NCBI GenBank assembly: GCA_036384915.1
Contig: DASVLJ010000042.1
Coordinates: 33,013-97,012, forward strand
Direction: 5' to 3'
DNA: 64,000 nucleotides
Source: Burkholderiaceae bacterium
GTDB lineage: Bacteria > Pseudomonadota > Gammaproteobacteria > Burkholderiales > Burkholderiaceae_D
In this document: positions 4,732 through 34,580 of the stretch, one piece after another
How the letters are laid out: the number at the start of each line of letters is the position of its first letter
How positions within the stretch are numbered: the stretch's first letter is position 1
Notes under the pieces: model-generated
Told to the model about the DNA's origin: nothing
Databases searched by the model: none
What the model saw: the letters and a program-made list of their open reading frames with translations, nothing else
Position numbers and translations under genes: made by a program

Positions 4732-6411
4732 ATGAACAACAACCTTGATCGCCCGTTCTACTACCTCGAGAACTTCAGTTTCGTTCTCGAGTGGGTGAGC
4801 CTGCGCTACGGCGATTTGCTCGATGCGGAAGAAGCGGCTTTCATAGCGGGGTTTGCCGCGCTGCCGGAAGCTTCTCGCGGTTTGCTGGTGCGTATGGTCA
4901 TGCGCAAGGGAGAATTGTTCCGCGCTTCGAAATTGCACTACGAGGAAATCGGCGCGATTGCACCGGCGGTGCAGCCCTTGATCGATATGGGGTGGATAGA
5001 GGCCGACCCGGAGCTGAGCTTGGAACAGCTATACGGCTTATTGACGCGCAAGGAGTTTGCCGATGCGCTAGGCCTTGGTGCCGCCAAGACGGCGCGCAAA
5101 GGCGATCTGTATGCGATGGCGGCGCAAGAGCAAAGCGCCCCGCGCAGTTTTTCGCAATGGTGTGCCGACCTGGCCGACACCGCTTATGAAATCCGCATTG
5201 GCGCCATATGCGACCGTATGCGCTTGATGTTCTTCGGTAACTTGCACCAGGATTGGTCTGAATTCATCCTGTCCGACCTTGGCGTTTACGCTTACGAAAA
5301 GATCGAATTCTCTGCCGACTCGCGCGCCTTTGCCGCACGGGCCGATATCGATTGCTATCTGCATATCGAGGCTTGCCGGGAATTGTTCCATTCCGGCTCT
5401 GAAGGCGAAGATACAGACGGCGAATTGGCCCGCCTGGAGCAGGTTGAGCACGATGTCATGGCGATTGCCGAAACCAATCCCTGGCTCGGCGAGCGCCGTG
5501 CGCGCTTGCTGTTTCAATTGGGGCAGCGGCTGGAACAACTCGAAGCGCATGAGCAGGCTTTGCGCGTCTATGAGGCAAGCGGATATTCCGGCGCCCGCCT
5601 GCGCCGCATCCGGGTGCTGGAAAAGAGCGCGCAATTTGCTGCCGCCATGAGCCTGGCGCGCGAGGCGCAAGCGGCACCCGAAAGCGCGGCGGAAACGCAA
5701 GGGCTGGAGCGCATGCTGCCGCGCCTGGCACGCAAGCTTGCCTTGCCACGCGAAACGGCCAGGCGCTTGCGCGCCGCCGATCGTATCGACCTCGTTTTGC
5801 CGGCGCCGACCGAAGACTACTACGTCGAAGAAGTCGCACGCGCACATCTCGCTGGAGCCGAACCACGGGCGCGCGTGTTCTATGTCGAGAACGCCTTGAT
5901 CAATTCGCTGTTCGGCTTGTTGTGCTGGGACGCGGTGTTCCACAACCTGCCCGGCGCCTTCTTCCACCCGTTCCAGAGCGGACCGTCCGATTTGCACAGC
6001 GCCGATTTCCGCAAGCGGCGCGCGGCGCAATTCGAGGCCTGCCTGAAGCAACTCGAAGACGGCAGCTACCGCGATGCAATCCGCGCCAATTTTCTGCGCA
6101 AGGCGGGCCTGCAGTCTCCGTTCGTGTATTGGCAGGTCCTCGACGAAGGCTTGCTCGAACTCGCCCTGGCTTGCATACCGGCGCAACATTTGGCGCGCTG
6201 GTTCGAGCGTATCCTGCAAGACATCGCCGCCAACCGCACCGGCTTTCCCGACCTGATCCAGTTCTGGCCCGAAGAGAAACGTTACCGCATGGTGGAGATC
6301 AAGGGGCCAGGCGACAGGCTGCAAGACAACCAGATCCGCCTGATCGATTTCGCGCTCTCGCACGGCATGCCCCTGGCCGTATGCCATGTGGCTTGGGAGG
6401 GCGAGGCGTGA
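4732..6411 (+). CDS. FAN1-like nuclease with C-terminal VRR-NUC domain
   Basis: 559 aa. The C-terminus VEIKGPGDRLQDNQIRLIDFALSHGMPLAVCHV is a VRR-NUC (PD-(D/E)XK) motif. The long N-terminal region and the adjacent helicase match the bacterial FAN1 architecture. Confidence 0.75.
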   Translation: MNNNLDRPFYYLENFSFVLEWVSLRYGDLLDAEEAAFIAGFAALPEASRGLLVRMVMRKGELFRASKLHYEEIGAIAPAVQPLIDMGWIEADPELSLEQLYGLLTRKEFADALGLGAAKTARKGDLYAMAAQEQSAPRSFSQWCADLADTAYEIRIGAICDRMRLMFFGNLHQDWSEFILSDLGVYAYEKIEFSADSRAFAARADIDCYLHIEACRELFHSGSEGEDTDGELARLEQVEHDVMAIAETNPWLGERRARLLFQLGQRLEQLEAHEQALRVYEASGYSGARLRRIRVLEKSAQFAAAMSLAREAQAAPESAAETQGLERMLPRLARKLALPRETARRLRAADRIDLVLPAPTEDYYVEEVARAHLAGAEPRARVFYVENALINSLFGLLCWDAVFHNLPGAFFHPFQSGPSDLHSADFRKRRAAQFEACLKQLEDGSYRDAIRANFLRKAGLQSPFVYWQVLDEGLLELALACIPAQHLARWFERILQDIAANRTGFPDLIQFWPEEKRYRMVEIKGPGDRLQDNQIRLIDFALSHGMPLAVCHVAWEGEA

Positions 6412-8648
6412 ACTACACCGTCGCCGTGCGCGCGTTGTGCGAATTTACCGCCAAGTGCGGCGACCTCGATCTGCGCTTCACACCGGCGCCGAGCGCGCAG
6501 GAAGGCATTGCCGGCCATGCGACCGTACGCGGCCGGCGCGGCGCCGGATACAAGGCGGAAGTCAGCCTTGAAGGCGAATACGGCCCTTTGCGCGTACGCG
6601 GCCGCGCCGATGGTTTCGATGCCAAGAAAAACCGGGTCGAGGAAATCAAGACCTATCGCGGCAGCCTGGAGCGCATGCCGGACAATCACCGGCAATTGCA
6701 TTGGGCGCAAGCGAAAATCTACGGCTGGCTGCTGTGCCAAAAATTGGACCTCGATGCGATCGAGGTGGCGCTGGTCTACTTCGATATCGGCGAGCAAACC
6801 GAGACGGTGCTGTGCGAGCGCCACGAAGCGGCGACACTGAGGCAATTCTTCGAGCAAAGCTGCGAACGCTTCCTGGCCTGGGCCGAGCAGGAAATGGCGC
6901 ACCGTGCGGAACTCGATACTGTATTGCGCGAACTCGGGTTTCCCTACCCGGAATTTCGCACCGGCCAGCGCGAATTGGCCGAGGCCGCATACAAGGCGGC
7001 AGCGGTAGGCTGTGCTGTGATGATGCAAGCACCCACCGGCATAGGCAAGACCGTGGGCACGCTGTTTCCCTTGCTCAAGGCGAAAGAGGCGAAGCAGCTC
7101 GACAAGATTTTTTATCTCGCGGCCAAGACTTCGGGCCGGCAACTGGCACTCGATGCGCTCGACCTGATCGCAGGCGGCAAACCGTTGCGCGTATTGGAGC
7201 TCGTGGCGCGCGACAAGGCTTGCGAACATCCGGATAAAGCTTGCCATGGCGATTCCTGTCCGCTCGCGCGCGGCTTTTACGACCGTTTGCCGGCGGCGCG
7301 CGGCGCCATGCTCCAGGAGCCACGCTTCGACAAGGCGGCGTTGCGCCGCGTCGCGCTCGAACACGAAGTGTGCCCCTACTACCTGGGCCAGGAAATGGCA
7401 CGCTGGGCCGATGTAACGGTGGGCGACTACAACTATTACTTCGACATCAGCGCCATGCTGCACGGCATGACCATGCTGCACCAGTGGCGCGTGGCCGTGC
7501 TGGTCGACGAGGCGCACAACCTGGTGGAGCGCGGACGCAAGATGTATTCCGCCGAATTGCATCAAGCTGACCTCAAGGCCTTGCGCGCCGCGGCGCCCGC
7601 CGAAGTGAAAGGTGCGCTCGACCGCGTGAACCGGCAATGGAATGCGCTGACCAAGGAGCAGGAAGCCGAATACCAGGTTTACCCGGCCATTCCAGATAAG
7701 TTTCTCGAAGCGCTGGAGCAGGCAAACGGCGCGATGGCGGATTATCTCGTAGCGCATGCCGACGGCATAAATGCCGAGCTGCAGCGCTTCTATTTCGACA
7801 TCGGCTTGTTTGTACGTCTGGCCGAAGCTTTTGGCGAGCACACTTTGTTCGATGTGGAAAAACCGAACAAGCATGACATCGTGCTCAACCTGCGCAACAT
7901 CGTGCCTGCGCCCTTCCTCAAGCCGCGTTTTGCTGCCGCGCATGCCAGCGTGCTGTTTTCCGCCACGCTTGCACCCTGGCAATTCTATGGCGACATGCTC
8001 GGCTTGCCGGAGGAGACGCCCTGGATAGACGTGGCTTCTCCGTTTCGCGCCGAGCAACTGGCGGTGTCGATAGAAAGGCGCATTTCGACACGCTGGCGCG
8101 ACCGCGATGCGTCGCTGGCGCCGATCGCCGATTTGATCGCGCGCCACTACAAGGGGGTACCGGGAAATTATCTCGCTTTCTTCAGCAGCTTCGATTACCT
8201 GCAGCGCGCGGCCGATCTGCTCGAATCCATCCATCCCGATTTGCCCATATGGCGCCAATCGCGCGATATGGATGAAGCGGCCAAGCAGGCCTTCCTCGCT
8301 CGCTTCACGTCGGGCGGGCGCGGCATCGGCTTCGCTGTCTTGGGAGGCGCTTTCGGCGAAGGCATAGATTTGCCCGGCGACCGCTTGATCGGCGCCTTCA
8401 TCGCCACGCTCGGCTTGCCGCAATTCAATGCGGTCAATGAGCAAATCAGGGAACGCATGCAAGAGATGTTCGGCGCCGGCTATGAATATGCCTACCTTTA
8501 TCCGGGCTTGCAAAAGGTGGTGCAGGCGGCCGGCCGCGTCATCCGCACCACGAGCGACCGCGGTACCGTGACCTTGATCGACGACCGCTTTGCCGCGCCG
8601 CAGGTGCGCGGGCTGTTGCCGGGTTGGTGGGACGTTGGAGTCGTCTGA
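6408..8648 (+). CDS. Cas4/RecB-like PD-(D/E)XK nuclease fused to an XPD/DinG-family (Rad3-like) Fe-S DNA helicase
   Basis: GTG start overlaps the VRR-NUC stop (GTGA, 4-nt overlap). N-terminus has GRADGFD...VEEIK (D..E.K nuclease motif). Walker A APTGIGKT and DEAH box VLVDEAHNL are present. Fe-S motif CEHPDKACHGDSC is typical of the XPD family. Confidence 0.8.
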   Translation: MNYTVAVRALCEFTAKCGDLDLRFTPAPSAQEGIAGHATVRGRRGAGYKAEVSLEGEYGPLRVRGRADGFDAKKNRVEEIKTYRGSLERMPDNHRQLHWAQAKIYGWLLCQKLDLDAIEVALVYFDIGEQTETVLCERHEAATLRQFFEQSCERFLAWAEQEMAHRAELDTVLRELGFPYPEFRTGQRELAEAAYKAAAVGCAVMMQAPTGIGKTVGTLFPLLKAKEAKQLDKIFYLAAKTSGRQLALDALDLIAGGKPLRVLELVARDKACEHPDKACHGDSCPLARGFYDRLPAARGAMLQEPRFDKAALRRVALEHEVCPYYLGQEMARWADVTVGDYNYYFDISAMLHGMTMLHQWRVAVLVDEAHNLVERGRKMYSAELHQADLKALRAAAPAEVKGALDRVNRQWNALTKEQEAEYQVYPAIPDKFLEALEQANGAMADYLVAHADGINAELQRFYFDIGLFVRLAEAFGEHTLFDVEKPNKHDIVLNLRNIVPAPFLKPRFAAAHASVLFSATLAPWQFYGDMLGLPEETPWIDVASPFRAEQLAVSIERRISTRWRDRDASLAPIADLIARHYKGVPGNYLAFFSSFDYLQRAADLLESIHPDLPIWRQSRDMDEAAKQAFLARFTSGGRGIGFAVLGGAFGEGIDLPGDRLIGAFIATLGLPQFNAVNEQIRERMQEMFGAGYEYAYLYPGLQKVVQAAGRVIRTTSDRGTVTLIDDRFAAPQVRGLLPGWWDVGVV
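8467..8630. repeat. Direct repeat copy 1 (164 bp, within the helicase 3' end), about 98% identical to 11349..11512
   Basis: Compared by eye. tgttcggcgccggctatgaata...ttgccgggttggtgg recurs 2882 bp downstream with about 3 mismatches. Confidence 0.9.
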
Positions 8649-8817
8649 CTTGGAACCGTCACTCGAAAGCAACGAAAATGCCTCGACCAAGATTTTCTGT
8701 CAGAATTGCGTCCGACCGAAGCGGCGAAGCTCTCCAAAAGTTATCGATTATTCTTGGCATTCGAGATCGAATGTGCGACTCTTAACGGAGCATGCTGCGT
8801 GTTTGTATTCGTTCAAA

Positions 8818-9228
8818 ATGGATCGTTTGACAGTCGAAAGACGAAGTTGGCTAATGGGGCGGGTTGGTTCGAAGAATACAACCCCGGAGCTTGCAGTGCG
8901 CCGGTTGGTTTTTTCGATGGGCTATCGCTATCGATTGCATGATATTCGACTTCCCGGCAAGCCGGATTTGGTTTTTTCGGGGCGACGGAAAGTCATTTTT
9001 GTCAACGGATGTTTTTGGCATGGTCATAAACGATGTCGCTATGCTCGATTACCCAAAACAAATGTGGATTTTTGGCAAGAGAAGATCGAACGCAATCGCG
9101 CAAGAGATCGAAAAAACAAAGCGCAACTGACTCGATTGGGATGGGGCGTACTTGTTGTTTGGCAGTGCGAATTGCGGAACATCGAAAAATTATCGGCAAA
9201 ATTATATGACTTCTTTGAACGAGACTAA
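8818..9228 (+). CDS. vsr: very short patch repair endonuclease
   Basis: LPGKPDLVFSGRRKVIFVNGCFWHGHKRC aligns with the E. coli Vsr core (FTHGCFWHHH). 136 aa. Overlaps the methyltransferase start by 23 nt. Confidence 0.85.
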   Translation: MDRLTVERRSWLMGRVGSKNTTPELAVRRLVFSMGYRYRLHDIRLPGKPDLVFSGRRKVIFVNGCFWHGHKRCRYARLPKTNVDFWQEKIERNRARDRKNKAQLTRLGWGVLVVWQCELRNIEKLSAKLYDFFERD

Positions 9229-10495
9229 TAAGCGTCCAATTGGGATCGATCTGTTCTCCGGGGCAGGTGGTATGTCGTTGGGGTTCGAGCAAGCTGGTTT
9301 CGATATTGCAGCCGCCGTGGAGATAGATCCCATACATTGCGCGACTCACGAGTACAACTTTCCGTATTCGAAGACCATATGTGCAAGTGTGGTGAACCTG
9401 ACCGGCGCGGAAATAAGACGTCGCGCAAATTTAAAGGACGCGGACGTCGACGTTGTATTTGGAGGGGCGCCATGCCAAGGTTTTTCCATGATAGGAAAAC
9501 GCGCGCTGGACGATCCAAGAAACCAATTGGTATTCCACTATGTTCGATTAGTGAGCGAACTTAAACCGAAATACTGCGTTTTCGAAAATGTTAAGGGCCT
9601 AACTTTGGGGCAGCATGCGGCTTTTCTTCAGGAATTGATTTCCGCGCTCGAGTCGGCTGGATATGACGTGCTTATGCCTTACCGAGTCTTGAATGCGGCG
9701 AATTTTGGGGTTCCTCAGGATCGCAAAAGACTTTTCCTGGTAGGCGCGCGCCGTGGTATGGAGTCTCCTCAATATCCCAAGGAGATCGCAGAGAGGGTTA
9801 CGGTTTGGGATGCGATTGGCGATTTGCCCGATGCAGACGAATTTGTCGAATTGAACACTGTGGACGAAGTGAGAGCTTCTTGGTTAACGCAATCCAAATA
9901 TGCGAGAAGGCTAAGGCTTCTAGATGTCGACTCGACAAATTTCGGCTATAAGCGCGACTTCGATAAAGATCTCTTATCTTCTAGCTTGCGAACCGAGCAT
10001 ACTGCTTTATCGAAAAAACGTTTCTTGGAGACAGAACACGGCAAGACGGAACCAATTAGCCGCTTCCGTAAATTGCCTCCAGATGGCCTGTGCAACACTT
10101 TGCGTGCCGGCACCGATAGTGCACGAGGTGCGTTCACCTCTCCACGCCCCATTCATCCGTTTCTTCCTCGCGTCATAACCGTGCGGGAGGCTGCGAGATT
10201 GCATTCCTATCCCGATTGGTTCAGATTTCATTCGACCAAATGGCATGGTTTCCGGCAAATCGGAAATAGCGTCCCGCCGCTTCTGGCGCGAGCAATCGCT
10301 CGCGAGATTGCTCGGGCAATGGGCATCCGACCGACTAAGCCAAAAATGCGACTGCAAACCGGGGATTCGGAACTGTTGACTTTCGATATGGGCGATGCCG
10401 CAACGTACTTCAACGTTCCTCGCAACACAATTGCCCAGCGTAGTCGAAAAAGCGACCCAAACCAACCCAACTTGTGGGAAGAAAGCTATGCCTAA
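9206..10495 (+). CDS. dcm: DNA (cytosine-5)-methyltransferase
   Basis: Motif I DLFSGAGGMSLGF, motif IV GGAPCQGFS, motif VI FENVKGL, motif X QIGNSVPP. ATG at 9206 (MTSLNETNK) chosen over the upstream ORF start. Confidence 0.9.
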   Translation: MTSLNETNKRPIGIDLFSGAGGMSLGFEQAGFDIAAAVEIDPIHCATHEYNFPYSKTICASVVNLTGAEIRRRANLKDADVDVVFGGAPCQGFSMIGKRALDDPRNQLVFHYVRLVSELKPKYCVFENVKGLTLGQHAAFLQELISALESAGYDVLMPYRVLNAANFGVPQDRKRLFLVGARRGMESPQYPKEIAERVTVWDAIGDLPDADEFVELNTVDEVRASWLTQSKYARRLRLLDVDSTNFGYKRDFDKDLLSSSLRTEHTALSKKRFLETEHGKTEPISRFRKLPPDGLCNTLRAGTDSARGAFTSPRPIHPFLPRVITVREAARLHSYPDWFRFHSTKWHGFRQIGNSVPPLLARAIAREIARAMGIRPTKPKMRLQTGDSELLTFDMGDAATYFNVPRNTIAQRSRKSDPNQPNLWEESYA

Positions 10496-11300
10496 GTCGG
10501 GGGAGAAGAAAAAACCAAACCGTTATCAAGCGATTATCGAACGGGTATTTTTGAATCGCTTCACTCCCAAGACTACGGAATTCGAATTTACCAGAGACGA
10601 ATTTGTATCGACCGCCAAGACGCTGGAGGTGGAGCTGCCGAAGAATATAGGCGATGTTATCTATTCTTTTCGCTACCGAAATGAACTTCCTGACGCAATC
10701 CGGAATACCGCAAAAAGCGGCTTCGAATGGATAATCGAGGGAGCGGGGCATGCACAATATCGCTTTCGACAAGTGAAATTCAATCGAATTCTCCCTCGGG
10801 CAGAGCTAATAACAATTAAGGTGCCAGACGCCACGCCGGAAATAATCGCGGCCTACTCGCTGAGTGACGAGCAAGCATTGCTGGCGAAGGTACGGTATTC
10901 GCGTTTGGTAGATGTCTTTCTGGGGGTAACAGCTTTTTCGTTGCAGAATCACCTGCGAACGACGGTAAAGAGTGTGGGGCAGATCGAAATAGACGAAATT
11001 TATGTCGCAATTGATCGTCATGGTCGTCAGTACGTGATTCCGGTACAGGCGAAGGGTGGCAACGACAAGCATGGTGTCGTACAGACGCAGCAAGATATTT
11101 TGTGTTGTGCCGAGAAATTTCCGAATTTGATTTGCAGAGCGGTTTCGGCGCAATTCATGAGCGCAAATAGAATTGCGATGTTCGAGCTTGCAGTTCAAAA
11201 GGATGAAGTGAAGGTGGTCGACGAAAAGCACTATCAACTTGTTGCAAGTACCGATATCACCCCGGAGGATTTATCGTTGTATTCACGGCGTAGCGATTAG
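10488..11300 (+). CDS. putative type II restriction endonuclease (family not recognised)
   Basis: Overlaps the methyltransferase stop by 8 nt (operon). Carries a PD-(D/E)XK-like IEIDEIYVAID...VQAKG signature. The position next to an m5C methyltransferase and vsr suggests the cognate REase. Confidence 0.5.
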   Translation: MPKSGEKKKPNRYQAIIERVFLNRFTPKTTEFEFTRDEFVSTAKTLEVELPKNIGDVIYSFRYRNELPDAIRNTAKSGFEWIIEGAGHAQYRFRQVKFNRILPRAELITIKVPDATPEIIAAYSLSDEQALLAKVRYSRLVDVFLGVTAFSLQNHLRTTVKSVGQIEIDEIYVAIDRHGRQYVIPVQAKGGNDKHGVVQTQQDILCCAEKFPNLICRAVSAQFMSANRIAMFELAVQKDEVKVVDEKHYQLVASTDITPEDLSLYSRRSD

Positions 11301-11348: not shown

Positions 11349-11524
11349 TGTTCGGCGCCGGCTATGAATACGCCTACCTTTATCCGGGCTTGCAAAAGGT
11401 GGTGCAGGCGGCCGGCCGCGTAATCCGCACTACGAGCGACCGCGGTACCGTGACCTTGATCGACGACCGCTTTGCCGCGCCGCAGGTGCGCGGGCTGTTG
11501 CCGGGTTGGTGGCATGTACAATAG
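11349..11524 (+). pseudogene. Duplicated 3' end remnant of the helicase gene (direct repeat copy 2; alternative ending ...PGWWHVQ*)
   Basis: Encodes FGAGYEYAYLYPGLQKVVQAAGRVIRTTSDRGTVTLIDDRFAAPQVRGLLPGWW, identical to the helicase C-terminus, but has no upstream gene body. Confidence 0.7.
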
Positions 11525-11609
11525 CGACGGCACCCGAAGCCGGGAAAACTTGCGAGAAATGCGCAGGCGCGGCTACACTTCAGGCTCGTATTTCTCTCAA
11601 ATTATCCCA

Positions 11610-11804
11610 ATGAAGAAGATATTCCATATCGCCGGCGCGCTCGGCGTGGCCTTGATCGTGCAATCGGCGCGTGCCCAATCGGTCGATAAACCCGTCTTCA
11701 AGGAGGGCGACAACTGGGAATACCAATACTTCGACACGTGGTCGAACCGCATGACATCGACCTTCTCCAAGCAAGTCATCGGGGTTTCAGGCGATTTCGG
11801 GTAG
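11610..11804 (+). pseudogene. N-terminal fragment of a gene for a secreted protein, interrupted by the IS1-family element
   Basis: MKKIFHIAGALGVALIVQSARA signal peptide. The frame terminates at a TAG inside the left IS terminal repeat. Removing 11800..15536 restores the frame into the 15536..16027 ORF (…SGDF-VRISYDLRE…). Confidence 0.8.
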
Positions 11805-11864
11805 TGTCTCAGTTTGATTTGTAACAGCGTTTTCATGCTTGAGCGGTCATGCTATCCTTGATGC

Positions 11865-12095
11865 ATGGCTACCAGACCCAAAAAGCTCGACTTGAACCAG
11901 CTCGCTAAGCGCATCGTAGATGAAGCCGCTGGCGAAGAACCTATCACACCAGCGCCACCCGAAAAAAACAAAGCCGCCCAAGAACTGGGGCGGCTAGGTG
12001 GCATCAAGGGCGGTGCGGCTCGCGCTAAGAGCCTTACACCAGAACAGCGTAGCGATATCGCCAAGAAGGCGGCAGCTAAGCGATGGGCAAAATAG
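11865..12095 (+). CDS. small basic hypothetical protein (76 aa), IS passenger
   Basis: MATRPKKLDLNQLAKRIVDEAAGEE...GRLGGIKGGAARAKSLTPEQRSDIAKKAAAKRWAK. Lys/Ala-rich, likely nucleic-acid binding. Family not identified. Confidence 0.5.
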   Translation: MATRPKKLDLNQLAKRIVDEAAGEEPITPAPPEKNKAAQELGRLGGIKGGAARAKSLTPEQRSDIAKKAAAKRWAK

Positions 12096-12125
12096 CTTCC
12101 CAAAAAGCCGCGCTCCAATTCTTAT

Positions 12126-12956
12126 CTAACTTTGCAAAGTCACCGTGATTTCGACAGCGCTATCGTCTTCGTCATACACTTGACTCACATTCATTGCAAA
12201 GGTTTGAAACCAGCGCAAGCGCTTCGTTGCAGGCCATTGCTCCCCTTGCTTGGGAATCTTCTGCAAGAGCGCTAAAAGCAGCGGATCAAGGTCTAGTCCA
12301 GTAGTACCGCCACCACCGTTTCCGCCATTTCCTCCTGTATTGCCATCGTTCGCATTCGCCTGCTTTGCCGGATCGGCATCCTTAACCAATACTGCGGGTA
12401 GAACTAGCTTATTGGGGCCTTGCTCTCGAAATCCGGTTTGTTGTGCGGAGCTTTCGAATACTTGTCGTGCACGTCCTTTCTGCTTTTCCGACACGCCGAG
12501 AGCGGCAATTTCTCGCTCTAATGCAGCGCTTGGCGGTGTGACATGACCTTTGTATTTATCATACAGCGCTCGAAACAGCGGAACACGAAGGAACGCCTCG
12601 GCCTTGGCTTGCCTAGCCTGGGATTGATCTACAACGCGTCGTCCCAAATCTGTCAAGTGGTAGCTCTCGGCGTCATTACTTTCAATCAGCCCGAACAAGC
12701 GGGCTGCCGCTAATTGAGACCTATAACTACTGCTTTTTGGGCTTTGGTCCATCCAAGCGGCAAGCTGGGAAGTAGCAGAACAATCTCCATGCCCAACATT
12801 CCCATGAATCGCCAGTGCCACAGCGACCGCAGCCTCGTAATCCGAGTAAGGGAATCCAATTGTTGAACGCTGCCGAGTCCTGACATCATCGGCAGCCCCT
12901 TCATCTTCGCCGTCAATTGCTTCGACATTTTCGCTCACGTGGATATCTCCGGTCAT
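12126..12956 (-). CDS. hypothetical protein (276 aa) with internal Gly-rich linker, IS passenger
   Basis: Long ORF in the low-GC segment. Gly-rich linker NTGGNGGNGGGGTTG separates a roughly 200-aa N-domain from a roughly 55-aa C-domain. No recognisable family. Confidence 0.55.
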   Translation of the reverse strand: MTGDIHVSENVEAIDGEDEGAADDVRTRQRSTIGFPYSDYEAAVAVALAIHGNVGHGDCSATSQLAAWMDQSPKSSSYRSQLAAARLFGLIESNDAESYHLTDLGRRVVDQSQARQAKAEAFLRVPLFRALYDKYKGHVTPPSAALEREIAALGVSEKQKGRARQVFESSAQQTGFREQGPNKLVLPAVLVKDADPAKQANANDGNTGGNGGNGGGGTTGLDLDPLLLALLQKIPKQGEQWPATKRLRWFQTFAMNVSQVYDEDDSAVEITVTLQS

Positions 12957-13289
12957 GTTAATGAACTGATGAACTGGAGTTTAATGCCGCCATTCGGTTA
13001 AGTCAATGCGAAAATTGGATAAATAACGAAATTCCTGTTTACTATCCGTTTTAGGCATTATAGAATGCACGGAACGATAGGAGAATGCCATGAGAAGATG
13101 CTGCGGCCTTAACTGAAATCGCCCGGTTAAGGCCAAAAGAAAGGCCCCAACAGCTAGAGACCTTTGGAGAGGGCAAGCAGTTGGGGCCGTGGCGATACAT
13201 TTTGCGAAGCGTTGCGGGCACCCGATTCCCCTAACAACCTAGAACACCCTGCGCCAACAGGGTGCGCTCTAGGAGAAAGGAGGTGCCAC

Positions 13290-13424
13290 ATGGATAAAAA
13301 ATCTTATCCTCCTGTGCCTGAAGGCTATGTGCTGAAGTTCGTGTCACACATTACGGTCAACGGCAAGGTTCTGTATGCGAAAGCATACGGCAAACGCGCT
13401 TGGCCGATCTTGGTTAAAACCTAA
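13290..13424 (+). CDS. small hypothetical protein (44 aa) upstream of the transposase
   Basis: Strong RBS (AGGAGG) 7 nt before ATG. MDKKSYPPVPEGYVLKFVSHITVNGKVLYAKAYGKRAWPILVKT. Could be an InsA-like small regulator; unverified. Confidence 0.35.
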   Translation: MDKKSYPPVPEGYVLKFVSHITVNGKVLYAKAYGKRAWPILVKT

Positions 13425-13532
13425 GAGTCGCCCGCACGCCTTCGCTTTTTACATTTTAAGCTAAATAAAGCCTCAAAACAACTTGCACATTCTTGCTCGC
13501 TCAAGCATAATTCATTTTAAGGAGGCAGGAAA

Positions 13533-14360
13533 ATGAATAAGCTGAGCTTACAAAAACGCACACAGATCATCGGCCTGCTGGTTGAGGGCAACTCAATGCG
13601 CGCCGCCTCCCGCCTCGCTGATTGCAGCATTAACACCGTTACCAAGCTGCTCGTAGATGTTGGCTACGCCTGCCAGTTCTACCAAGCCCAGGTCATCAAG
13701 AACGTTCAAGCCAAGCGCGTTCAATGCGACGAGATTTGGTCTTTCTGCTACTCGAAGGAAAAGAACGTCGCGCCGGAAGACAAGGGCATATTGGGCCACG
13801 GCGATGTGTACACATGGACTGCCATCGATGCTGATACAAAACTCGCCATTTCGTGGCTCGTCGGTCGCCGCGATCTTGAGTATGCTGAGGTGTTTATCGA
13901 AGACTTGGCATCGCGCCTTGCTGGCCGCATCCAGCTAACCACGGACGGCCACGGCCCGTATATTCCAGCCGTGGATAGAATCTTTGGCGGGGCAATCGAC
14001 TACGCCATGTTGGTGAAGCACTACGAAGGCCAATCCAACACGGATCAACGTCGCTACAGCCCCGCCCAATTCGTCTGCGCAGAGAAGCGCCGCATCAGCG
14101 GCCTGCCGTTTGCCAAGCATGTTTCAACTAGCTTTGTCGAACGCCAAAACTTGACCATGCGGATGGGCATGCGCCGCTTCACGCGGCTGACAAACGGCTT
14201 CAGCAAGAAGATCGAAAACCTTGAGCATGCCGTGGCGCTGCACTTCATGCATTACAACTTTTGCCGCATCCATAAGACGCTGAAGACTACGCCCGCACTC
14301 GAAGCGGGGATTGCTGACAAGCTTTGGAGCATTGAGGATATTGCGAAGCTACTAGACTGA
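13533..14360 (+). CDS. IS1-family (ISMhu11 group) single-ORF DDE transposase
   Basis: N-terminal HTH MNKLSLQKRTQIIGLLVEGNSMRAASRLADCSINTVTKLLVDVG. RVQCDEIWSFCYSKEKNV and the C-terminal ...HKTLKTTPALEAGIADKLWSIEDI are characteristic of this transposase group. Confidence 0.8.
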   Translation: MNKLSLQKRTQIIGLLVEGNSMRAASRLADCSINTVTKLLVDVGYACQFYQAQVIKNVQAKRVQCDEIWSFCYSKEKNVAPEDKGILGHGDVYTWTAIDADTKLAISWLVGRRDLEYAEVFIEDLASRLAGRIQLTTDGHGPYIPAVDRIFGGAIDYAMLVKHYEGQSNTDQRRYSPAQFVCAEKRRISGLPFAKHVSTSFVERQNLTMRMGMRRFTRLTNGFSKKIENLEHAVALHFMHYNFCRIHKTLKTTPALEAGIADKLWSIEDIAKLLD

Positions 14361-14648
14361 AATGGCAACAAATCTAATTTCTAATAGATTGATTTCGTTT
14401 TCCGTTACCGTAAACAGGAACGTAAGCGTAAACGGAAATCCATAATTTACATGCTGCGAGCTTGTCCGCAAAAGATATACTTGCGGGTCCGTTCCTGGAA
14501 TAGGCGTAGCGTCCTCTAAAGGATTCCGCGCCAACCTCCAAGACCAACCGCATTCCCACCAATCCTGAAAACGAGGATACGCTGCGGCAAGGCGATCCAA
14601 TTCTGCCGAAACACTAACTGATTCTGAAATTGTTTTGGCAAAAGTCAT
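14352..14648 (-). CDS. putative toxin (98 aa, unrecognised family) encoded immediately after the Panacea-domain antitoxin
   Basis: Its ATG directly abuts the Panacea gene stop (TAGATG), a typical TA operon arrangement. C-terminal YLLRTSSQHVNYGFPFTLTFLFTVTENEINLLEIRF has a RelE/ParE-like beta-rich flavour but was not confidently assigned. Confidence 0.5.
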   Translation of the reverse strand: MTFAKTISESVSVSAELDRLAAAYPRFQDWWECGWSWRLARNPLEDATPIPGTDPQVYLLRTSSQHVNYGFPFTLTFLFTVTENEINLLEIRFVAISV

Positions 14649-15182
14649 CTATGCCGCCAATTTTTCTTTAGCCCATGCGAAATCTGTTTCATCCACCTCT
14701 CCAACATCCGATGCAAAGACGGTGGCCAACGGGATTTCTTCTCCCATATTGGCAATTCTCCAGATTATACCGTGCGTTTCCTCGCTAACAGTTTTGGCGG
14801 TATGGTTCAGGCAAACATGCTCAAATGCAGAATCAACTAGCTTAATTTCATCTACCGAAAAAATAGATGTATCGCATTCGGCAATAGCAATATATTCGGT
14901 TTTGACGAATCCAAAATGATCCACGCGCCCGCGCGCAATCAAGCCCTCGGCAACTAATTGATCGACCGCTGACACGATATGCCTCGGCACTGGCCCATGC
15001 TGACGCTTCACATAAGATTCGCCGGTAATCGAATGCCCGGTGACCATATAGCGAATTGAATCAGAATACCAAAGTACCTTATTAAGTTTTACCGCCCCAA
15101 GAACGGAAGGGTCCGATGCCTTTTCGCAAATATAATGCACCAGCGCCTTAAATTTTTCCCAGTTCATAGTTTCCATTTTCAA
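14649..15182 (-). CDS. Panacea-domain (DUF4065, SocA-like) antitoxin
   Basis: 177 aa. KLNKVLWYSDSIRYMVTGHSITGESYVKRQHGPVP matches the Panacea domain core. AT-rich promoter region lies upstream inside the IS. Confidence 0.7.
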   Translation of the reverse strand: MKMETMNWEKFKALVHYICEKASDPSVLGAVKLNKVLWYSDSIRYMVTGHSITGESYVKRQHGPVPRHIVSAVDQLVAEGLIARGRVDHFGFVKTEYIAIAECDTSIFSVDEIKLVDSAFEHVCLNHTAKTVSEETHGIIWRIANMGEEIPLATVFASDVGEVDETDFAWAKEKLAA

Positions 15183-15535
15183 GCTCCTGTATTCAATGTG
15201 GAGCGAAATCTCAAAATTTCCAGCAATTTAAACGCCAACGCATAACTTTGCTCGCGCGGAACGCTCGCAGTCAGGGTAGCATATTTTATGCAAGTCAAGC
15301 AATTTTTACGTGCGAATGCAATAAAAGTATGTTGCGCGGAAATTTCATAAATAACAACCTGTCATTGTTGTCAGGTACTACGCAAAATTTTCGCTCGCCG
15401 TTAGGCATCATATTAGTTAAATAATTTCAAAATCATGAGTAACAATTTATGAATTTTGTTTTTGCTTTTTAACAACGCCGAAAATCAAGGAATATCAACG
15501 CCTGTTACATTTGATCTGAGACACTGCCCGATTTC

Positions 15536-16027
15536 GTGCGCATCTCCTATGATTTGCGCGAGATTTCCAAGACCGGCGATATCGGCCGGCCGCAGCAATC
15601 GGAAAGCACGGTGCGCGCGGACCTGAATGGCACCACGATGTCGGGCAGTGAAAAGTTCGACCGGCTCAACTACAAGTGGCCGCTCGAAACGGGCAAGAAG
15701 TGGACTTCCCAATTCAAGTCCGATCTGCCCCCGGCCGCTGTCAATGCCCCGTCCCAGGTCATGACGACCACGATGGATTCCGAGGTCAAGGGCTGGGAAA
15801 AGGTCAAGACGCCGGCCGGCGAATTCAATGCCCTGAAAATCGTCGTCAAGGGCAGCTGGAGCGTGAGCAATTCCGCCGCCAGCACCGGGTCGGGCACCTT
15901 CAATGCCGCGCACTGGTACAGCCCCGATGTGAAAAGCGACGTGCAATACACCTATGAAGCCTTCAGTGCCGACGGCACACCGGGGAACAAGACCAAGCAG
16001 GTGTTGAGCAGTTACAACTTCAGGTAG
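15536..16027 (+). pseudogene. C-terminal fragment of the IS-interrupted secreted-protein gene
   Basis: Starts at the G of the right target-site duplication copy. Frame continuity with 11610..11799 after precise excision of the IS plus one TSD copy. Confidence 0.8.

Positions 16028-32375: not shown

Positions 32376-34580
<2,205 letters not shown>

Follow-up and report, generated by a model that had tools for sequence, protein, structure and literature searches.

Does a Panacea-domain gene that directly abuts a small unclassified reading frame in a Burkholderiaceae chromosome form a toxin-antitoxin (TA) operon with it, and was the pair brought there as the cargo of an insertion sequence (IS)? 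The question was raised by positions 14352-15182 of a stretch of 64,000 nucleotides (hereafter the window; positions 33,013 to 97,012 of contig DASVLJ010000042.1, assembly GCA_036384915.1), for which an earlier note, made from the letters alone, had proposed a novel PanA/PanT pair carried by an IS1-family element. The analysis reported here makes it probable that the pair is a type II TA operon of the PanA/PanT type, and shows it to be a passenger of an IS1-family transposon inserted into a chromosomal gene with a DUF3108-like domain.

On the minus strand, the region 14352-15182 holds two abutting open reading frames (ORFs), a Panacea-domain gene followed by a 98-aa ORF. The TAG stop of the former (14649-14651) lies directly next to the ATG of the latter (14648..14352), giving a TAGATG junction; the two ORFs, the junction and the 98-aa peptide quoted in the earlier note were all correct. 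The first product matched the Pfam model SocA_Panacea (PF13274) over residues 33-138 with an E of 2.9e-10 (41.5 bits, cutoff 25.7), and an identical protein in a Burkholderiaceae metagenome-assembled genome (MAG) is labelled 'Panacea domain-containing protein' by NCBI. The domain given in the note thus stands, and its length of 177 aa, obtained by counting from a TTG at 15182, probably does not: AGGAG lies 7 nt upstream of an ATG at 15176 and independent metagenome gene calls give a protein of 175 aa, so that the product is likely 175 aa long (15176..14649). This protein, hereafter PanA, consists of the Panacea core and a short, conserved acidic C-terminal stretch (residues ~140-175), with no second domain recognised, and is 63-77% identical to PanA of four related loci (L001, L005, L007 and L018).

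The 98-aa ORF could be suspected of being a chance frame between the Panacea and transposase genes. The NCBI accessions of the transposase and of the Panacea protein (HEX7643115.1 and HEX7643116.1) are consecutive, so the 98-aa gene (14352-14648) is apparently unannotated in the record of the MAG; many metagenome gene calls omit it too. It is convergent with the transposase gene (13533-14360, plus strand) and the two 3' ends overlap by 9 bp, which is probably the reason why gene callers leave it out. The suspicion is nevertheless refuted by conservation. A word-indexed search returned five non-identical homologues of 97-102 aa, with 52-65% identity and 35 invariant positions, and an exhaustive profile search of 1.84 billion cluster representatives returned 77 clusters at E<=1e-3 (50% identity level), nearly all of 83-133 aa and almost all metagenomic. 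Homologues of conserved length, invariant positions and the number of clusters indicate a real gene, and with the confidently predicted fold described below they leave the chance frame practically no credit. Pattern scans for relatives confirmed none in GTDB species genomes or IMG/VR, and the scan of metagenomes gave 5 loci. Truncation of the ORF by the IS insertion was also considered and rejected, as the C-terminus is conserved in homologues regardless of the orientation of the transposase gene. In an alignment of 76 sequences W37, R41, P43 and P72 are nearly invariant, a 'WRLARxP' motif is located at the end of helix 2, and K/R5, R26, D/E29, K/R61 and Y79 are also well conserved.

Gene neighbourhoods were then compared in 17 lineages (the window, L001, L005, L007, L008, L013, L014, L015, L016, L018, L158, L249 and L259-L263), of which 16 could be assessed, the locus of L262 being cut by a contig end. 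A Panacea gene adjoins the gene of the 98-aa family in 15 of the 16; in 14 lineages it directly precedes that gene on the same strand, at a spacing of 0-12 nt or with a short overlap. The association persists down to 24-37% identity to the 98-aa protein of the window, the behaviour expected of a cognate pair. The earlier note had named an absence of co-occurrence as the ground on which its pairing would fall, and adjacency is what was found.

By sequence, the partner is as unclassified as the note had described it, with no match in Pfam (E<=0.1), NCBIfam or PADLOC and only chance matches (galectin, beta-lactamase) in PDB sequence searches with 7- and 76-sequence profiles of the family. By structure prediction it is not unclassified. 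AlphaFold2, run on a 7-sequence alignment, gave a model with a pLDDT of 88.6 and a pTM of 0.77, in which a strand, a helix, a second helix and an antiparallel sheet follow each other, with a short extra helix between strands at residues 64-69. This matches the characteristic RelE/ParE fold (N-terminal strand, two-helix hairpin, antiparallel sheet), and we regard a RelE/ParE toxin fold for the 98-aa protein as a confident prediction. The novelty claimed for the pair holds for the sequence and not for the superfamily, since ParE is already among the toxin domains partnered with Panacea (PMC8832971). The partner represents a sequence family that is new by the lack of Pfam, NCBIfam, PADLOC and PDB sequence matches, although it may still turn out to belong to one of the 88 PanT clusters already published; the toxin superfamily is a known one, and the toxin type is not new.

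Aligned with hhalign, the family profile matched E. coli RelE with a marginal E of 0.019, in register over the P-x-x-G, Y-x-I-K and L-x-Y motifs. The numbering of the RelE sequence used here reproduces the known K52, K54, R61, R81 and Y87. These are the catalytic basic and aromatic residues of RelE, itself a basic protein. In the hhalign alignment K54 is the sole one with a conserved equivalent in the partner (K/R61, 91%); R61 aligns with a non-basic position of the family, and the 98-aa protein stops 5 residues past its last strand, leaving R81 and Y87 without a counterpart. Its pI is 4.75 with a net charge of about -4, against a pI of about 9-10 for the RelE and RK2 ParE sequences used here, and the pI is below 7 in 67% of the 76 family members. 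The combination of catalytic residues and a basic protein that marks a RelE-type mRNase is therefore not found in the 98-aa protein, and the acidic pI and the missing equivalents of R61, R81 and Y87 argue against a classical ribosome-dependent mRNase. With low confidence, and judging from sequence features, a ParE-like action on a protein target such as gyrase, or another non-RelE activity, appears likelier than ribosome-dependent mRNA cleavage. In gyrase poisons of the ParE type, inhibition of DNA gyrase depends on the C-terminal region. Unlike the toxins of RelBE, ParDE, YefM-YoeB and HigBA, the partner goes undetected by sequence models and has no C-terminal helix or tail; the helix at 64-69 is a further difference from RelE-superfamily toxins, and the antitoxin is a Panacea protein where RelE/ParE-superfamily systems have RelB, ParD, YefM or HigA.

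The second half of the question concerns the vehicle. No convincing inverted repeats directly flank the transposase gene, and the ends of the element were located only after a related insertion, in L014, was seen to split an integrase gene. There, the block 'small gene - P63C - transposase - PanA - partner' interrupts a phage integrase gene and is bounded by 23-nt inverted repeats GGTAGTGTCTCAGTTTGAAATTC and a duplicated target. In the window, an 18-mer at 11800-11817 with a single occurrence is identical to the L014 repeat at 18/18 positions (0.02 chance matches expected), and the right repeat agrees with the left one at 12 of the first 13 nt, TGTAACAG being common to both with a 1-nt offset. 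These ends delimit an element of 3,729 bp (11800-15528); the inverted repeats are of the IS1 type, and the target is duplicated over 8 bp. Between the left and the right repeat lie, in this order, the genes for the 76-aa small protein and the 276-aa orphan (minus), the 44-aa ORF, the genes for the transposase, the partner (minus) and PanA (minus), and the AT-rich leader (Table 1). Deletion of 11800-15536 joins ..11799 to 15537.. and yields one continuous host ORF (MKKIFHIAG...SSYNFR).

Homologous pairs are present in six more bounded elements, whose ends are of the same type and which each have a perfect 8-bp duplication of their own; in these and in the window element the ends start with GGTAGTG or GGCAGTG. 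Inverted repeats, target duplication, a host ORF restored on excision and six more bounded insertions thus confirm the claim that the pair is IS cargo. A preference of the IS for the 3' end of the partner gene as its target was considered and rejected: both genes are enclosed by the repeats, and the seven duplicated targets have different sequences. In three other lineages (L158, L249 and L259) one repeat lies beside the pair in truncated or degraded contexts. Several lineages have an IS1-like transposase gene beside the pair, with the genes arranged in four different ways; L261 retains a transposase remnant only and L007 has no transposase, and both keep the pair, so that they are non-autonomous elements with the pair as their main content. 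Among pair-carrying elements, that of the window included, the transposases share 54-69% identity. The window and L014 have 63% identity in the transposase, against 39% in PanA and 31% in the partner; PanA and partner being far more diverged than the transposase, the pair was either exchanged or captured more than once or is evolving much faster than the transposase. Two irregular arrangements were also seen: in L005 (3534-3576) the left terminal repeat is duplicated in tandem with the copies 25 bp apart, and L001 (10440-11366) has a second, divergent Panacea gene preceded, at a distance of about 330 bp, by a third repeat-like sequence, a sign that this phage contig may hold another related element.

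The IS1 family (ISfinder) has GGnnnTG ends and target duplications of 8-9 bp, and classical IS1 encodes insA and insB joined by a programmed -1 frameshift; single-ORF and passenger-carrying subgroups exist. The elements described here share with it the GGnnnTG ends and the 8-bp duplications, and their DDE transposase carries the IS1-like 'ERxNLxxR...FSK' signature; ends, duplications and transposase similarity are consistent with the single-ORF type of the IS1 family. The IS1 models themselves score the window transposase under their cutoffs (NCBIfam transpos_IS1, E 1.2e-12 and 48 bits against a cutoff of 100; Pfam DDE_Tnp_IS1, E 0.0018, with IS240 also weak), and close homologues are named 'IS1 family transposase' by NCBI, in the case of L005, and by JGI. 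Unlike in classical IS1, every element encodes its transposase in one uninterrupted ORF (275-294 aa), with no InsA/InsB frameshift, and passengers are routine: a Lys/Ala-rich protein and a P63C protein, with the PanA-toxin pair in this sub-lineage. All 15 contigs with an identical transposase have the same insertion site and belong to one population, which gives no evidence of recent movement of the window copy, and no second transposase copy was found within the window.

For the repeat pattern GGTAGTGNNTCAGTTTGA, over 120 exact matches are listed in each of two collections, GTDB species genomes and IMG/VR, from many phyla; these totals are lower bounds, and 240 loci (L019-L258) were fetched for a survey of the cargo. 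The transposase is present in 71 of the 240, the small Lys/Ala-rich protein in 84 and a P63C model match in 64, a count inflated by a motif that the small protein shares with the P63C N-terminus. The PanA-partner pair occurs in only 2/240. The transposon family is widespread and the pair is a rare, optional cargo of it. Elements with perfect 8-bp duplications, 51 in number, range from a MITE-like one (miniature, non-coding) of 154 bp to 4.8 kb.

Table 1. Features of the window element and its insertion site, and bounded elements with homologous pairs in other loci (length in place of position).
Feature	Position or length	Strand	Remarks
Left 8-bp target-site duplication CGATTTCG	11792..11799	.	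identical to 15529-15536; abuts inverted repeat
Left terminal inverted repeat GGTAGTGTCTCAGTTTGATTTGTAACAG	11800..11827	+	pairs with right repeat
76-aa Lys/Ala-rich small protein	11865..12095	+	homologues at same position in L001, L005, L014
276-aa orphan passenger gene	12126..12956	-	slot where related elements carry P63C-domain gene
44-aa ORF upstream of transposase	13290..13424	+	called as gene in metagenome annotations; no family match
IS1-family DDE transposase, 275 aa, single ORF	13533..14360	+	IS1-like model matches and relatives
Putative toxin PanT, 98-aa protein with predicted RelE/ParE fold	14352..14648	-	
Putative antitoxin PanA, Panacea-domain protein	14649..15176	-	PF13274 above cutoff; alternative TTG start 15182
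AT-rich leader (~37-39% GC), non-coding, right repeat to Panacea gene	15177..15501	-	presumed promoter/operator region
Right terminal inverted repeat, reverse complement GGCAGTGTCTCAGATCAAATGTAACAG	15502..15528	-	pairs with left repeat
Right 8-bp target-site duplication CGATTTCG	15529..15536	.	abuts right repeat
Interrupted host gene, signal peptide and DUF3108-like domain	5' fragment 11472..11799, 3' fragment 15537-16027	+	3' part matches DUF3108_like
Element in L001	2,316 bp		target duplication CGCGCCCA
Element in L005	3,475 bp		target duplication CCTTTTTG
Element in L007	1,856 bp		target duplication CGAAAATC
Element in L014	3,122 bp		target duplication AACAAGAA
Element in L016	3,173 bp		target duplication AATCTGCA
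Element in L261	1,223 bp		target duplication GAACTTTC

As for the other genes of the window element, the L005 homologue of the 76-aa protein is named 'histone H1' by NCBI. The product of the 276-aa orphan gene has a Gly/Asn-rich linker and no significant match in Pfam, NCBIfam or PADLOC, and by tblastn no homologue was found in 258 loci except in contigs of the same population; that it might be a diverged P63C gene was rejected, as BLASTP shows no similarity to P63C proteins. Across the GGTAGTGNNTCAGTTTGA-ended family the usual passengers are the small Lys/Ala-rich protein and the P63C-domain protein, and MITE-like derivatives of 154-600 bp with perfect 8-bp duplications occur. Other cargo of the family (L059:1508-1846, L236:3321-4484, L094:1701-3065 and L045:1246-2247) consists of TA- or defence-like genes: a HigB-like toxin, an HTH_3 plus Peptidase_M78 cargo (ImmA/IrrE-like), and a different Panacea protein whose gene precedes that of an unclassified partner of 147 aa.

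The interrupted DUF3108-like gene is closely preceded by a cluster of low GC (~47-52%, window 8590-11300). It encodes a mismatch endonuclease, Vsr (8590-9228), a C5 cytosine methylase of the Dcm type (9152-10495) and, in a 301-aa ORF without a family match, what may be a restriction enzyme; the element lies about 500 bp from this Vsr-Dcm-endonuclease cluster. At the unrelated locus L158, the PanA-partner pair and a solo IS repeat are found between vsr and dcm genes. Further upstream in the window there is a gene for a FAN1-like nuclease of 559 aa (FAN1_HTH, SAP and VRR-NUC; 4732-6411), followed by one for a DinG/XPD-type helicase of 908 aa (DEAD_2 and Helicase_C_2; 5922-8648). The two ORFs as listed overlap by about 490 nt, so the helicase probably starts further downstream.

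Among known systems, the pair most resembles PanA/PanT (Kurata et al., 2022, PMC8832971; Ernits et al., 2023, PMC10440598) in having the gene for a Panacea protein of some 175 aa directly before that of a small, tightly coupled partner and in its occurrence on phages and mobile elements; ParE-type partners, and transposases as frequent neighbours, have already been reported for PanAT pairs (PMC8832971). It differs from PanA/PanT as published in that the partner is acidic and belongs to a family without a Pfam, NCBIfam or PADLOC model. TA pairs are also integral cargo of Tn3-family transposons (Lima-Mendez et al., 2020, PMC7157771), where, as here, type II pairs, often with a ParE-type toxin, reside in a transposon and are exchanged between elements. 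Tn3-family transposons have a Tn3-type TnpA, 38-bp repeats and a resolution module. The present elements are of the IS1 family and measure 1.2-3.7 kb, their DDE transposase is encoded in a single ORF, their repeats are about 27 bp long and their duplications 8 bp, and the position and orientation of the pair vary within the element; scans of ORFs and family models found no Tn3-type TnpA or resolvase gene in 11800-15528, and the resemblance is one of analogy.

Under the reading we prefer, a PanA/PanT-type operon carried by the transposon, transcription of the pair would start in the AT-rich leader beside the right repeat, and TAGATG would couple the translation of the two genes. PanA would bind the 98-aa protein directly and keep the putative toxin inactive, as standalone Panacea antitoxins are known to neutralise their toxins directly (PMC10440598). 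If PanA were depleted, because the element, or the phage, prophage or replicon that bears it, had been lost or in response to stress or a phage, the toxin would be freed and growth would stop; this would penalise loss of the transposon, or of the host replicon or prophage. Such a role in the retention of the element is proposed by analogy with the TA pairs of Tn3-family transposons (PMC7157771).

Several observations weigh against this reading. In L015 (3208-4028, on a phage-like contig) the partner and Panacea genes are convergent with a 4-bp 3' overlap, an arrangement that is unusual for a TA pair and cannot be one operon, and in L008 the partner gene stands solo with no Panacea gene beside it, so that a potent toxin would there need another antidote. 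A scan of the leader (15177..15501) with the consensus sigma-70 found no minus-strand promoter-like site. The 98-aa query reaches no RelE, ParE, HigB or YoeB sequence model at E<=0.1, the Pfam ParE_toxin model is touched, weakly, by just 3 of 76 relatives (best E 0.0057), and hhalign gave no match between the family profile and the RK2 ParE sequence used here; an acidic protein of RelE/ParE fold without the known catalytic residues could be inactive. Moreover, the window transposase is without the basic C-terminal tail (~15 aa) of its relatives, and with this tail-less transposase and a diverged right repeat the window copy may be immobile now.

On another reading, the 98-aa protein would be a non-toxic, degenerate RelE/ParE fold that forms with the Panacea protein a regulatory or accessory complex of the transposon, acting for example on transposase expression or target choice. 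Its acidity, the lack of RelE catalytic residues and of the C-terminal segment, its failure to match any toxin sequence model, the tight tie to one transposon family in four gene arrangements and the solo copy of L008 would fit such a role. A pair found in only two of the 240 repeat-bearing loci is, however, dispensable for transposition, and one that has diverged far more than the transposase looks like exchangeable cargo and not like a core component; in addition, the experimentally validated non-Panacea partners in the cited work are all toxic (PMC8832971, PMC10440598). We therefore consider a regulatory complex improbable. A different view accepts the pair as a TA system and places its selected role in phage defence, or superinfection exclusion, by abortive infection, with the Panacea protein as the sensor that releases the partner upon infection and the transposon merely spreading a defence gene. 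Ernits et al. favour a sensor role of Panacea and link TA to defence systems (PMC10440598), many of the carriers are phage or prophage contigs (L001, L007 and L015), and the repeat pattern has more than 120 matches listed in IMG/VR; the proximity of the window copy to the Vsr-Dcm-endonuclease cluster, the pair of L158 between vsr and dcm, and the TA- and defence-like nature of the other family cargo (HigB-like, ImmA/IrrE-like, second Panacea pair) point the same way. Against it, the pair has no PADLOC match, and the pair-only elements L261 and L007 fit selfish retention at least equally, so that we hold defence as the selected role to be doubtful, though far from negligible. A role in defence and stabilisation of the element are not mutually exclusive.

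The preferred reading of a transposon-borne PanA/PanT-type operon also admits a bolder extension, which we offer tentatively and think unlikely: that a widespread IS1-type lineage repeatedly captured and exchanged Panacea-partner pairs and spawned pair-only non-autonomous elements, presumably mobilised in trans, in which the pair would act as a transposable addiction or defence cassette and the partner, of acidic RelE/ParE fold without any of the known catalytic residues, would work neither by RelE-like mRNA cleavage nor by classical ParE gyrase poisoning.

What the analysis mainly adds are the exact boundaries of the element, seven bounded insertions and the pair-only derivatives. To the partners of Panacea, a known antitoxin domain here found in a known transposon family, it adds a sequence family of predicted RelE/ParE fold for which there was no model. 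The seven independent bounded insertions, two of them without a transposase, suggest that TA pairs, so far documented mainly as cargo of Tn3-family transposons, can be cargo of small IS1-family transposons as well. The system may thus offer a tractable way of asking whether a TA pair makes a minimal transposon more persistent in phages and chromosomes, and how the genomic context of Panacea pairs changes.

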